This document shows positions 3,102 to 14,406 of a stretch of DNA of 14,406 nucleotides, piece by piece. The stretch lies in assembly GCA_040326155.1 (NCBI GenBank), contig JBEQLE010000089.1, positions 1 to 14,406 on the forward strand. Reading direction: 5' to 3'. The notes beneath the pieces were generated by a model that was given only the letters and a program-made list of their open reading frames with translations, made no database searches and was not told the DNA's origin. Source of the stretch: Leptospirales bacterium (GTDB taxonomy: Bacteria > Spirochaetota > Leptospiria > Turneriellales > JAOUFE01). Positions within the stretch are counted from its first letter, which is position 1, and every line of letters starts with the position of its first letter. The translations under genes and the position numbers were made by a program.

Positions 3102-5471
3102 TTAATCCTTTTCTACTTTGACGGCGCATTTTTTATAATCGGGTTGTTTCGAAAGAGGGCAGTGTGCATCGAGGGTCAGCACATTGACCAGCATATCTTC
3201 ATCGAAAAACGGGGTAAAAACCAACCCTGGTTTCGGAACCGCCCGGCCGTTTACTTGAGCCGGCATAACCAGACTGCCGCGCCGGGTGCTCAATTTAACA
3301 TTGTCCCCATTTTTTATGCCAAGGTTTTTGGCATCGTCGGGGTGAATTTCAACATAAGATTCGGGAACAGCCTGGTGAATTTGTTCGACTCTTCTTGTCA
3401 TAGAACCAGAGTGCCAGTGTTCAATAACTCTGCCTGTACATAACCAGAAGGGGTATTCTTTATCGGGCTCTTCCGGAGCGCTTTCATAAGGACGGTGCCA
3501 GATTACAGCTTTATTGCCATATTTTTTATTACCATAAAACGAGAATTTTTCACCTTTTTTTACATAGGGGTCAGAACCTTCCCGATATCTCCATCTCGTC
3601 TCTTTGCCATTGACTACGGGCCAGCGAAGTCCTCTTTCTTTTTTCAGTTGGTCGTAAGTGGCAAGGTCTTTACCGACACCCACTGTAAATTTTCGATACT
3701 CTTCAAACAGACCGCGCGCTTGTTCTTTTTCTGTTTCCCAGGGAAACAAGTGCCCATAGCCCATTCTTTTGGCTACTTCAATAAGCTGCCAGGCGTCGGG
3801 AGTACAATCACCCGGTCCATCGACCATTTTTTCCCATTGCTGGGTGCGCCTTTCGGAGTTCCCAAAACAGGCTTCGCGTTCGACCCACATTGACGCGGGT
3901 AAAATTACATCGGCAATATCGGTAGTGGGTGTGGGGTAAATATCGGATACGACTATAAACGGTTTATGTTTTTCAATACCCTTTAAAAATTTATCGTGAT
4001 CGGGCAGGGTAACCATCGGGTTTGTCACCTGTATCCACATGGCTTTAATATTGCCATCTTTCAGTTTACGAAACATAGCCATCGTATGGGCGCTTGGTTT
4101 TTCAGGTATAGTACCCGGTTTGACGCCCCATGTTTTTTCGGCAAAATCCCGGTGTTCTTTTTTCATGACAACTCGACCGCCGGGCAGACCATGCGTTAAC
4201 GTACCTACTTCACGAACAGTTCCGCACGCCGAGGGTTGACCGGTTAGAGAAAATGGACCCGAACCAGGCAGTGAAATTTTCCCTGTAAGAAGATGAATAT
4301 TGTAGACCAGATTGTTAATCCAGGTTCCCCTTGTGTGTTGGTTCATTCCCATACACCAGAACGAAACAATTTTGGTTTTTGGGTTGGCATAAAACGCGGC
4401 CAGTTCTCGAATGGTCTGTGCGCTTACACCGCTAATCTTTTCGGCGTATTCAGGAGTATACTCTTTTAGAAATTCTTTATATTCGCCAAAAGAAGTGAGG
4501 GTTCCTGTAATTTTGGGAGCAGGTTCACCTTCCAGCCCATACCCAATCTGTGTCGTTCCTTCTTTATACACGGTAAAGTTTTGTATAAAAGCGTTGTTGG
4601 TTTTTCCGTTATAAACAATTTCATGCGCAATCGCGTTGGCTATGGCTAAGTCCGATTGAGGGTTAAACATTAAAACCATATCACTGGCCTGGGTGGTGCG
4701 TGTTTTGCGTACGGTAATATCCACAATTTTTACATGGGGGGCCGTTCGCCTTCTTTCGGTAATACGACTGAACAAAACAGGATGAGTTTCGGCCATATTG
4801 TTACCCCATAAAACAAACATATCGGACTCTTCAATATCGTCGTAACAACCCATGGGTTCGTCTTTACCAAAGGTGGTAATAAAACCGACCACAGCCGAGG
4901 CCATGCATAAACGAGCATTGGCTTCAATATTATTGGTTCCAATAGCCCCTTTCATGAATTTTATACCGGCGTAACCATCTTGTATCGTCCATTGACCAGA
5001 ACCATACAAAGAGACAGAGTCGGGACCATGCTCTTTAATATTTTCCTGAAATTTTGTGGCAACCAGATCGAGAGCTTCACTGAGTTCGGCTTTTTGCAGC
5101 TTTCCGTTTTTACGTATATAAGCTGAGTCAAAACGATCTTCCCCATATAAAATTTCCCCTAAATGGTAACCTTTTACACATAAAAGTCCTTTGTTTACCG
5201 AACTTTTTTGATCGCCTGCAATAGCCACAACGCGTCCGTCACGAACACCGACCATCACACCGCAACCGACACCGCAAAATCGACAAGGGGCTTTTTTCCA
5301 CTCAATGGAAAGCTCTTCTAAAATATTACCGGCGTTCTCTTCTTTACAGCCTGGAAAAAATGCCGCTCCGGCAATGGAAACAGCGTACGCGGCTCCGATT
5401 TTTTTTAAGAAACTGCGTCGGCTTATTTCACCTTCAGGTTTCTTCTTTTCTGGTTGTATGGTTTGTTTCAT
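3102..5471 (-). CDS. napA: Periplasmic nitrate reductase catalytic subunit (Mo-bisPGD, 4Fe-4S)
   Basis: Tat motif SRRSFLK; [4Fe-4S] motif CRFCGVGC...LCVKG; Mo-ligand ARLCMASAV; FSLTGQPSACGT; MGMNQH; C-terminal DYKKCAVKV. Start placed at ATG 5471 after AAGAAGGG. Confidence 0.97.
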   Translation of the reverse strand: MKQTIQPEKKKPEGEISRRSFLKKIGAAYAVSIAGAAFFPGCKEENAGNILEELSIEWKKAPCRFCGVGCGVMVGVRDGRVVAIAGDQKSSVNKGLLCVKGYHLGEILYGEDRFDSAYIRKNGKLQKAELSEALDLVATKFQENIKEHGPDSVSLYGSGQWTIQDGYAGIKFMKGAIGTNNIEANARLCMASAVVGFITTFGKDEPMGCYDDIEESDMFVLWGNNMAETHPVLFSRITERRRTAPHVKIVDITVRKTRTTQASDMVLMFNPQSDLAIANAIAHEIVYNGKTNNAFIQNFTVYKEGTTQIGYGLEGEPAPKITGTLTSFGEYKEFLKEYTPEYAEKISGVSAQTIRELAAFYANPKTKIVSFWCMGMNQHTRGTWINNLVYNIHLLTGKISLPGSGPFSLTGQPSACGTVREVGTLTHGLPGGRVVMKKEHRDFAEKTWGVKPGTIPEKPSAHTMAMFRKLKDGNIKAMWIQVTNPMVTLPDHDKFLKGIEKHKPFIVVSDIYPTPTTDIADVILPASMWVEREACFGNSERRTQQWEKMVDGPGDCTPDAWQLIEVAKRMGYGHLFPWETEKEQARGLFEEYRKFTVGVGKDLATYDQLKKERGLRWPVVNGKETRWRYREGSDPYVKKGEKFSFYGNKKYGNKAVIWHRPYESAPEEPDKEYPFWLCTGRVIEHWHSGSMTRRVEQIHQAVPESYVEIHPDDAKNLGIKNGDNVKLSTRRGSLVMPAQVNGRAVPKPGLVFTPFFDEDMLVNVLTLDAHCPLSKQPDYKKCAVKVEKD

Positions 5472-5951: not shown

Positions 5952-6563
5952 ATGCATCAACTCAGAAGAAAAATTCGCAATATAATGATGGTTTCAGGCT
6001 TAATTATTTTTTCTGGCCTCATGTTCGCTGGTTGCGCTAATAACGGCATGTGCGCAGATATAGACAGAAGTTCTGGTGGTAGCGGAAGTGTTTCGTCCGT
6101 AGATGCAACCAATGATCTTACAAAATCAGAGGCCACTGAAATTTTAAGACAGGTAAATGCTGTTCGCTCAGAGGGAGACTGCGATTGCCCGGCCTCCGAT
6201 GGCGATTCGGCTTCTTCTCATGACTCGCTAAACACGATCTCCTGGAATACAAAACTGGAGAAAGCCGCCTCAGCTCACTCAATTGACATGGAGTTCAATG
6301 ACTTTTTTTCTCATACAGGAACCGGCAATACATCAGTGAGCGACCGCGTAACATTACAAGCCTATGCCTGGGTCTATGTAAACGAAAATATTGCAGCAGG
6401 TTACTCCTCGGTTACGGAAGTAATGGACGGTTGGCTAAATAGCGGTGGCCATTGCAGAAATATTATGGCATCGACACCAAATGACATCGGCGTTGGCCTG
6501 ATCTACGATAATGGCGCGGCAACATACTCCAGCTATTGGACCATGGATATGGGAAAACAATAG
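5952..6563 (+). CDS. CAP (SCP/YkwD-like) domain lipoprotein
   Basis: VNAVRS, WNTKLEKAASAHSIDM, FFSHTG, ENIAAG and WLNSGGHCRNIM motifs; lipobox FAGC; RBS AAGGAG at 5940..5945. Confidence 0.92.
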   Translation: MHQLRRKIRNIMMVSGLIIFSGLMFAGCANNGMCADIDRSSGGSGSVSSVDATNDLTKSEATEILRQVNAVRSEGDCDCPASDGDSASSHDSLNTISWNTKLEKAASAHSIDMEFNDFFSHTGTGNTSVSDRVTLQAYAWVYVNENIAAGYSSVTEVMDGWLNSGGHCRNIMASTPNDIGVGLIYDNGAATYSSYWTMDMGKQ

Positions 6564-7483: not shown

Positions 7484-7819
7484 GTGACAAGGGAGTTTGT
7501 ATACCTGCCGTCGTTCGATAAAGAGTGGGAATTACTCGGCTTCGAGCATGAGGACTTTTTAAAATTAGAAAATTATTTATTAGAAAACTCCCAATTATCG
7601 CCTGTAATTTCCGGTACTGGAGGTCTCAGAAAGTTGCGATGGGCAATACCGGGGAAGGGAAAACGAGGTGGTTCACGAATAATTTATATTGATTTCGTAG
7701 CCTTCAGTAAAATATACTTAATCACTGCATATCCAAAAAGTCAAAAAGATAACCTTACAATTGCAGAAAAAAATATTTTGAAAACACTTGTAAGAAAACT
7801 TAAAAATGAGAATATATAA
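7484..7819 (+). CDS. higB: RelE/ParE superfamily toxin, HigB-2 type
   Basis: ISGTGGLRKLRW...GKGKRGGSRIIY...IYLITAYPKSQKDNLT is the typical HigB-2 pattern; toxin-first order. Confidence 0.9.
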   Translation: MTREFVYLPSFDKEWELLGFEHEDFLKLENYLLENSQLSPVISGTGGLRKLRWAIPGKGKRGGSRIIYIDFVAFSKIYLITAYPKSQKDNLTIAEKNILKTLVRKLKNENI

Positions 7820-7833
7820 GGTGGTAAAAAACT

Positions 7834-8172
7834 ATGAAAACTAAAAAGGATAGCATGTCAGTTTTCTCGAAAATCGAAACAGGCTTGAAAGAGGCTGTAG
7901 CATTTGAATCCGGTAAAGGCAAGGCCAGAGTGCAAAGGAGGCAGATAGAAATAACCCCTCTACCACATTACAAAGGAAATACGATAAAACATATAAGAGA
8001 AGAGTTAAATTTGTCACAAAGGATGTTTGCCGGAATTGTCGGTGTCTCCATCAAAACAATTGAATCTTGGGAATCCGGAAAAAGCGAACCAAGTGGTGCA
8101 GCACAGCGATTGTTATCGATTATTAAAAAAGATTCAAATTGTATAGAAAAGTATGAACTAATTAGAACATAG
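7834..8172 (+). CDS. higA: XRE/HTH_3 antitoxin, HigA-2 type
   Basis: N-terminal FSKIETGLKEAV helix; HTH IREELNLSQRMFAGIVGVSIKTIESWESGKSEPSGAAQRLL. Confidence 0.9.
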   Translation: MKTKKDSMSVFSKIETGLKEAVAFESGKGKARVQRRQIEITPLPHYKGNTIKHIREELNLSQRMFAGIVGVSIKTIESWESGKSEPSGAAQRLLSIIKKDSNCIEKYELIRT

Positions 8173-10262: not shown

Positions 10263-11324
10263 ATGAGCAAAAGGACAGGTTTTTTATTACGAATAATTGC
10301 AGTTAGTTTTACCATGGGAATGGTAAGTTATTGCGCCAGCAACGGTGGTGGCGGTAATAATGGAGGAGGGGGAAGTGGTTCTTCTGCTGGAGATACTACA
10401 ACGGAGACGGTAGATGGGGTAGCCTTCAACATGGTCTACGTTCCCGGTAAAACGACATTTACCGATACCGCTGACGGAACACAGGCAACGGTAGCCGATG
10501 CTTACGAGATCGCTGATACAGAGGTAACTTATGAACTATGGAACGCCGTACATACCTGGGCGACAACTGGTGATGGGGTGCCTGTAAGTACAGGCGAAGC
10601 CGCTTATACTTTTTCGAACGCGGGGACTATGGGTGACAACGGAGCTAGAACCAACCAGCACCCGGTTACCACTATAAATTGGCGCGATGCTATGGTCTGG
10701 ACCAACGCCCTGACTGAATACTACAACGCCCAAAATGGAACTACACTTCAGGTTGTCTATTACTCCGATGGGGATAGTTCATATGCGACTCCCCTCAGAG
10801 ACTCTAGCGATTCCGGAATATGCTCGGCGGCGGCAACCAGTACAACGGCAGGTCAATGTGATAACCCGGATGTAAAAAGTAGCGCCAAAGGGTTTCGTCT
10901 GCCTACAACGGATGAATGGGAACTGGCTGCAAGGTATATATCTGATTCGAACAATGATGGCGATATAATGGATACTGACGAATATTACCCCGGTAATTAT
11001 GCCAGTGGGGCAACGCTTTCCACTACAAATTTTGCAGCGACAAGTCTTGTTGCCTGGTTTGGAAATTCTGTGGTAGTTGGAACTGGAAATACAACCACAA
11101 CCCAGCTTGTGGCAACTAAAACCGCCAATGCTCTGGAGCTTTACGATATGAGTGGCAATGTCTGGGAGTGGAGTTTTGATTGGTTTACAGTCGATTCGAA
11201 TCGTCTGGTCCGTGGGGGTAGCTGGTTTTTTTCAGCAACGAACGCACGAATTGGTGTCTTGTTCACCTACTTTCCGTACTTAGAGTTCAACCACATTGGG
11301 TTTCGCCCTGCGAGGAATTCTTAA
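10263..11324 (+). CDS. FGE-sulfatase/SUMF1 (C-type lectin fold) lipoprotein; candidate DGR target protein
   Basis: RBS AGGAGG 10252..10257; signal ending VSYC then a Gly/Ser linker; TEVTYELW, HPVTTINWRDA, GFRLPTTDEWELAAR, YDMSGNVWEW, RGGSW...IGFR motifs. Confidence 0.93.
   Translation: MSKRTGFLLRIIAVSFTMGMVSYCASNGGGGNNGGGGSGSSAGDTTTETVDGVAFNMVYVPGKTTFTDTADGTQATVADAYEIADTEVTYELWNAVHTWATTGDGVPVSTGEAAYTFSNAGTMGDNGARTNQHPVTTINWRDAMVWTNALTEYYNAQNGTTLQVVYYSDGDSSYATPLRDSSDSGICSAAATSTTAGQCDNPDVKSSAKGFRLPTTDEWELAARYISDSNNDGDIMDTDEYYPGNYASGATLSTTNFAATSLVAWFGNSVVVGTGNTTTTQLVATKTANALELYDMSGNVWEWSFDWFTVDSNRLVRGGSWFFSATNARIGVLFTYFPYLEFNHIGFRPARNS
11196..11324 (+). other. Putative DGR variable region (VR) with conserved 3' end
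   Basis: SNRLVRGGSW-FFS-A-TN-ARIG-V-L-FTYF-P-YL-E-FNH-IGFRPAR. The variable slots hold mainly NNY codons, as expected from AAY templates. No template repeat seen in the window. Confidence 0.6.
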
Positions 11325-14006: not shown

Positions 14007-14406
14007 GAGTCTGTAGAATAAGTATAGACAAGACTATAATGTCATGTAAAATGCCGTATGGCAAATTACAAGCATACAAATCCGAACCAAGTGGAATTTA
14101 CGGTGATCGATTACAGAAAACAACTAGAAGCAAATCCGATGGCGATGGCAATTGAAGAAATTATCGATACAAAAATTGACTTGAAGATTTTCGACAAACA
14201 ATTTAAAAACGATGAGACAGGGGCTTCGGCATATAATCCCAAAATTATACTTAAAGCGATTTTATACGCTTATACACGTGGCATTATCGGATCCCGGCGC
14301 ATCGCTAAGTTGTGTGAAGAGAACGTGATATTTATGACGCTCGCCGAAAAGCAAGCTCCGCACTACACATATATCGCTGCCTTCGTACACAAGTTTGAAG
14401 ACGAGG
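14007..14406 (+). mobile_element. IS1182-family insertion sequence, left part
   Basis: Transposase from 14058. Candidate left inverted repeat GAGTCTGTAGAATAAGT at 14007..14023; boundary is inferred because the right end is outside the window. Confidence 0.75.
14058..14406 (+). CDS. IS1182-family transposase, N-terminal DUF772 part (runs off the right edge)
   Basis: Not in the ORF track. Hand translation MANYKHTNPNQ...FKNDETGASAYNPKIILKAILYAYTRGIIGSRRIAKLCEENVIFMTLAEKQAPHYTYIAAF. Confidence 0.92.
   Translation, partial: MANYKHTNPNQVEFTVIDYRKQLEANPMAMAIEEIIDTKIDLKIFDKQFKNDETGASAYNPKIILKAILYAYTRGIIGSRRIAKLCEENVIFMTLAEKQAPHYTYIAAFVHKFEDE

Follow-up and report, generated by a model that had tools for sequence, protein, structure and literature searches.

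A DGR-type variable region, probably orphaned and now fixed, at the end of a TvpA-like probable lipoprotein gene from an uncultured spirochaete

Proteins of the FGE-sulfatase/CLec1 type are described as the largest class of DGR targets ("category b"; Wu et al. 2018, PMC5758913), and according to the same paper the Treponema DGR has up to seven remote targets. A 2016 paper (PMC4891356) describes isolates of Treponema denticola that have neither RT nor template and carry target-like FGE lipoprotein genes, which are read there as remnants; by that account, the remnants still differ from a known template mostly at adenines.

The gene described here lies in a 14,406-nucleotide stretch of DNA from a Leptospirales bacterium (contig JBEQLE010000089.1 of assembly GCA_040326155.1), referred to below as the window, and it can be compared with both of these systems. 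Like TvpA, the variable protein of Treponema denticola (PDB 2y3c), its product has an FGE-subtype fold, an N-terminus of probable lipoprotein type, and an RGGSW-(23 residues)-(I/L)GFR motif of identical length. Unlike TvpA, with which it shares 26% sequence identity, it belongs to a genome in which searches returned no template, DGR RT, or Avd, and its segment is conserved with an orthologue. The Treponema remnants, as reported in PMC4891356, are likewise FGE-sulfatase lipoprotein genes with a variable-region-type end in genomes lacking RT and template.

The open reading frame occupies 10263..11324 on the + strand, including the stop, and encodes a TvpA-like FGE-sulfatase/C-type-lectin-fold probable lipoprotein of 353 amino acids, as assigned from the ORF list, translation, Pfam match, and structure model. 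All features given here are on the same strand. A signal peptide up to Cys24 (10263..10334) was read from the sequence, in which a hydrophobic helix at residues 3 to 21, also a helix in the model, is followed by SYC at residues 22 to 24 as part of a probable lipobox (...MVSYC). Tyr at position −1 is atypical of a lipobox, and Cys24 is at least 90% conserved among 56 homologues. A Gly/Ser/Asn-rich flexible tether follows (residues 25 to 43, 10335..10391), with pLDDT below 50 at residues 26 to 37, and leads to the FGE-sulfatase (CLec-fold) domain at residues 64 to 351 (10452..11315), which was delimited by Pfam and recovered at the same place in a family search of the bacterium's own genome (C159:10452-11315). 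With such an N-terminus, the product would be lipidated and exposed at the cell surface.

Near the end of this domain is a variable-region-type segment of 31 codons (11214..11306), recognized by the layout that it shares with TvpA and with a DGR of a relative (G019, below) and by its NNY bias. It consists of GGSW (11214..11225), a variable core at residues 322 to 344 (11226..11294), and IGFR (11295..11306). Core codons 1 to 12 are TTT TTT TCA GCA ACG AAC GCA CGA ATT GGT GTC TTG and codons 13 to 23 are TTC ACC TAC TTT CCG TAC TTA GAG TTC AAC CAC, so that five Phe, two Tyr, and one His are found among 23 residues. Five residues separate the end of the motif from the stop, and the product terminates in ...RGGSWFFSATNARIGVLFTYFPYLEFNHIGFRPARNS. 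The final stretch, PARNS plus the stop (11307..11324), is conserved, with the ...CGCCCTGCGAG... end common to the window gene, a paralogue in the same genome (C100), and an orthologue (L063). In DGR targets, going by the Bordetella phage literature, an IMH and a nearby hairpin at a suitable spacing are required downstream of the variable region. In the window gene, PARNS and the stop occupy the place of the IMH; no hairpin adjoining the stop was seen in the window, where the 90 nt that follow GFR form a weak structure (−11.7 kcal/mol).

Neighboring genes in the window are of an ordinary chromosomal kind, including a PMT_2-type glycosyltransferase, an apolipoprotein N-acyltransferase, a molybdopterin oxidoreductase, and two toxin-antitoxin pairs of RelB/YafQ type and RelE-like/HTH MqsA-like type (1752-2303 and 7484-8172). 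Positions 5952-6563 encode a 203-amino-acid protein with a CAP/SCP domain (cysteine-rich secretory protein family), and a DUF772 transposase fragment at 14058-14405 runs off the contig end.

The fold assignment draws on both sequence and structure. Residues 64 to 351 match PF03781 (FGE-sulfatase) with an E value of 6.1e-28 and 98.6 bits versus a cutoff of 23.3, and an AlphaFold2 model built from the 56 homologues has a mean pLDDT of 90.0. The best Foldseek match of this model is TvpA 2y3c (E 6.1e-17, TM 0.70 normalized to the target), followed by CarF 5aoh (E 8.1e-16), PvdO, and true FGEs at about 1e-10. Among solved structures, the closest in sequence are CarF 5aoh (E 8.8e-19) and, by phmmer, TvpA 2y3c (E 9.4e-11), with the TvpA alignment being free of gaps across RGGSW...GFR. 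These matches bear out an earlier note, written from the letters of the window, which had described the product as an FGE-subtype CLec lipoprotein of TvpA type with a GGSW...IGFR layout; lipidation remains at the level of probable. Its remark that no template or RT is nearby also holds, as retroelement parts are absent from the window. Homologues are on record under titles that name MAGs of Spirochaetia, Spirochaetota, or Leptospirales.

RTs bearing the hallmark motifs of DGRs (IGNQTSQ and YMDD) are encoded by G019 and G026, two relatives from the same order. In G019, a 127-nt template adjoins the RT, and two homologous genes, both located on contigs other than the one that carries the RT and template, have ends that match it. 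These targets are 83 to 88% identical to the template. Adenines account for 13 of 17 mismatches in one target and for 17 of 22 in the second, leaving 4 to 5 non-adenine mismatches per template-target pair, and both targets have a CTCTG-N4-CAGAG hairpin after the stop. G019 has a working DGR with remote targets, and it served as the positive control for the template search methods. The window gene has the same 31-column layout as the G019 system. Unlike the G019 targets, it has no template at 83 to 88% identity, no adenine-dominated mismatches to one, and no hairpin after the stop.

A second source of template sequence was a metagenome contig of 1911 nt, L079, in which a full-length homologue terminates with a copy of the segment that is rich in Asn codons, GGSWYISANNMKVGNWNNNNPNNENNNIGFR, with 12 AAY codons (L079:1094-1246). 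Its reading frame continues beyond the usual stop, and no RT open reading frame is found in the 700 nt downstream. The copy looks like a template, or like a template/target chimera produced by assembly. The 31-column layout is identical in the window, the G019 template and variable regions, and the L079 template. Elsewhere, a fermentation-metagenome organism has a locus with three FGE-fold genes (L087/L088) in which two copies of the segment, 1.4 kb apart (3748-3840 and 5199-5291), are 95.7% identical (4 mismatches per 93 nt) and are possibly a template-target pair. Another candidate, L030/L041, was considered as two variable-region copies and rejected as a single frameshifted gene.

Codon usage in the core was evaluated both in the window gene and across the family. 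All 15 candidate variable codons listed in the earlier note are present at 11226..11294, and 12 of them end in C/T, the exceptions being TCA, ACG, and TTA. Against a background of 186 C/T-ending codons among the 317 upstream codons of the same gene (58.7%), this excess barely exceeds chance (p = 0.075), and ten of the twelve encode F, Y, N, or H, which obligatorily end in C/T. Variable positions can also be defined from foreign templates, as the union of the AAY columns of the G019 template (L056:1852-1944) and the L079 template (L079:1094-1186), which gives 14 slots and 9 scaffold columns. By this definition, NNY codons fill 12 of 14 slots in the window versus 2 of 9 scaffold columns (Fisher one-sided p = 0.004). 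Freely degenerate slot codons number three in the window, two of which end in C/T, and the TTA found at one slot cannot derive from AAY. Taken alone, the NNY signal of the window gene is largely amino-acid composition.

At the level of the family, 45 unique 31-residue segments from relatives and metagenomes have NNY codons at 467 of 540 positions in the 12 L079 slots (a count that includes the two templates) versus 220 of 495 elsewhere. With the templates excluded, four-fold-degenerate codons end in C/T in 146 of 185 cases at slots versus 106 of 274 elsewhere. Because the bias extends to four-fold-degenerate codons, selection on amino acids does not explain the family signal. The FGE-fold family as a whole thus bears the imprint of DGRs, and the window copy fits this pattern.

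Compared directly with the L079 template, the nearest one known, the window segment is mismatched at 22 of 34 adenines versus 15 of 59 other bases (p = 2e-4). Since 15 non-adenine mismatches are present here and only 4 to 5 in each G019 pair, none of the known templates can account for the sequence as it now stands. In this respect the window gene differs from the Treponema remnants reported in PMC4891356, as it has no matching template, differs from L079 at those 15 non-adenine positions, and has slots that are out of NNY. The combination of these three features would make it an older and more eroded relic than the Treponema remnants.

The window's own assembly (G000) consists of 171 contigs and is 94.66% complete. 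Neither megablast-type searches nor blastn at word size 7 found a second DNA copy or a template of the segment in G000, and the short-word search for a non-coding copy differing at adenines, as proposed in the earlier note, returned the paralogue C100 (65% DNA identity) as its sole other match. A six-frame scan of G000 for GGSW...GFR yielded the window and C100 only, and no template fragment was found by blastn or motif scan, contig ends included. With these same methods, the template of G019 and the 65%-identical paralogue were both recovered. An unspecific scan of the whole assembly for stretches of 31 codons that include 8 or more AAY codons produced 400 matches, none in a GGSW...GFR context, while a 21-mer suggested in the earlier note, with up to 4 substitutions allowed, was found in the window, in C100, and in a chance match on C92 lacking lectin context.

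Searches of G000 for DGR proteins gave a similar picture, with no RT of the DGR clade. The two RVT_1 matches, which are the assembly's only RTs, are both of group-II-intron type, with YADD in both and maturase motifs; one is complete and contains QGGVISP (C142:18428-19768), and the other is cut by the contig end before QGGVISP (C157:1-561). Searching G000 by tblastn with the DGR RTs of the two relatives reached only the C142 intron RT (E 3e-16, 25% identity), and the best match to Avd (PF05635) had an E value of 0.5. Absence from a 171-contig bin carries little weight, since other bins with such genes also lack these parts: G002 has one such gene and neither a template copy nor a DGR-type RT, and G009 and G013, with 8 and 13 paralogues, have no RVT_1 match.

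Paralogues in these genomes vary in architecture. The paralogue C100 (C100:36783-38738) is a 652-amino-acid protein, 56% identical over the FGE domain, that also has Cys-rich repeats and, on its N-terminal side, two additional repeat domains, and its tail, GGSWDNSVTNIQVGGSVFSVSSYNEYDRIGFR, is one residue longer than that of the window gene. A third paralogue at about C149:53365-53770 retains a lipoprotein N-terminus and the first half of the FGE domain, with 50% identity to residues 12 to 142; an assembly break at a repeat was rejected because the gene breaks off in mid-contig, and it is probably a pseudogene. In G013, two contigs (C65 and C4; loci L017, L033, L065, and L121) have open frames of 2433 and 2876 amino acids with tandem FGE-fold domains, two in C4 and four in C65, each with its own variable-region-type segment. 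Several of these segments have NNY codons at 12 of 12 slots, and the 13 paralogues of this genome are domains of this type.

Among 5.8 billion clustered proteins, only one close homologue of the window product was found (P0002, 72% protein identity). Its DNA, L063, is 73% identical to the window gene, and as the single close orthologue it comes from a contig of 1394 nt, which is too short for orthology to be judged by synteny. Core residues are identical in 15 of 23 cases versus 207 of 267 for residues 45 to 313 (p = 0.20), and slot residues in 9 of 14. Differences at codon positions 1/2/3 number 6/4/10 in the core and 41/35/125 in residues 45 to 313, with six synonymous-only differences within the core. 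At two slots, the genes have TTA and ACG/ACA in common, and these shared non-NNY codons suggest that the onset of drift from NNY predates the separation of the two lineages.

A very different pattern was found in a control pair, L025:1-372 (G002:C101) versus L069:3563-3934. L025 comes from G002, a genome of the same GTDB family as that of the window. The pair is about 93% identical upstream, while only 2 of 14 slots are identical, and the 16 differences in the 69-nt core are confined to codon positions 1 and 2 (8/8/0). This looks like the product of active or recent mutagenic homing, a pattern that the window pair does not follow. The earlier note had proposed a hypervariable protein whose diversity is generated in trans by a DGR at another genomic site. 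As far as could be tested in the available sequence, G000 offers no template, DGR-type RT, or Avd, and the C-terminus of L063 is conserved to roughly the same degree as its remaining sequence, both being results of the kind that the note named as counting against its proposal. Diversification in trans is thus not supported for the present gene; within the same order, relatives do carry remote DGR targets of FGE type.

We favor the explanation, at a probability of roughly 0.65, that the tail is an orphaned DGR variable region, once diversified and now fixed as a stable aromatic binding face. In an ancestor or donor, a DGR would have copied an Asn-codon-rich template into the site and rewritten the template adenines, creating an aromatic, NNY-coded binding surface. 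The link to the DGR would later have been lost and the allele fixed, and since fixation the segment, in common with the remainder of the gene, would have accumulated ordinary point substitutions while purifying selection acted on it. Past mutagenic homing may well have acted on the window copy itself.

The names of the family invite a different explanation. Pfam and database entries such as "formylglycine-generating enzyme" and "SUMF1/EgtB/PvdO family nonheme iron enzyme" would make it a catalytic FGE/SUMF1-family protein, active in formylglycine generation or EgtB/PvdO-like chemistry and not a binder, yet this is scarcely credible given that the non-catalytic TvpA and CarF outrank true FGEs in both sequence and structure matches and that a surface position outside the cytoplasm is suggested by its lipoprotein signal and tether. 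No Cys is found in the product beyond residue 199. FGE has a pair of catalytic, copper-binding cysteines, Cys336 and Cys341 in the human enzyme by the residue numbers in PDB titles, that is presumably located in the GGSW...IGFR segment, and by that placement the pair is absent here. The product is best read as a surface-tethered, non-enzymatic ligand binder. It would bind through its aromatic-rich face, which would suit a glycan or hydrophobic ligand. Such a face could also have arisen with no DGR ever acting on this copy, if the gene were an ordinary lectin-fold paralogue with an NNY bias due to selection for aromatic or Asn-rich residues and DGRs had independently recruited other members of the family. 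That 10 of the 12 NNY slot codons obligatorily end in C/T is compatible with this history, as are a genome without template or DGR RT, an orthologue comparison showing ordinary substitution only, and two genome paralogues that are 65% DNA-identical here, with no homogenization by a common template. We nonetheless consider it unlikely, because amino-acid selection leaves the four-fold-degenerate bias of the family (146/185 versus 106/274) unexplained, NNY codons in the window itself sort with the slots taken from foreign templates (12/14 versus 2/9), and fresh DGR-type variation is present in a gene of the same GTDB family.

At the opposite extreme, the window gene could be an active remote target whose RT, Avd, and template sit on a mobile element or in genomic sequence missed by assembly or binning. 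G019 does have real targets on other contigs, remote targets are described for Treponema (PMC5758913), the assembly is incomplete, cassettes are missing from other bins with fresh-looking genes, and the layout and conserved ...CGCCCTGCGAG end are intact here. The chance of this is slim, however, when 9 of 14 slots are identical to the orthologue at 27% nucleotide difference, with non-NNY codons shared, and the diversified control pair keeps only 2 of 14. Core differences (6/4/10) are not limited to codon positions 1 and 2, the stop has no adjoining hairpin of the kind seen in G019 targets, and no template fragment was found even at contig ends. A variant with a slimmer chance still is that an unbinned cassette rewrites 11226..11294 only rarely, with strong selection keeping one aromatic allele dominant in what is still a live remote target. 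Conservation with the orthologue would then represent convergence on, or retention of, a favored ligand-binding solution. If so, binning would be systematically hiding a trans-acting DGR network with many targets in this family of uncultured spirochaetes, a prospect to be read alongside the counts of such genes in bins without an RT (1 in G002, 8 in G009, and 13 in G013).

Relics of this kind are already known from Treponema, as reported in PMC4891356, and the present gene extends them to an uncultured spirochaete lineage with no new mechanism. The analysis provides a worked example of how a live DGR target can be told from a relic with no template at hand, using slots defined by foreign templates and then the slot identity and codon position of differences from an orthologue. 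If the tail is indeed an orphaned variable region, a DGR-shaped binding site can stay locked in long after the retroelement has been lost, in an FGE-fold lipoprotein family of uncultured spirochaetes that carries a DGR signature throughout.
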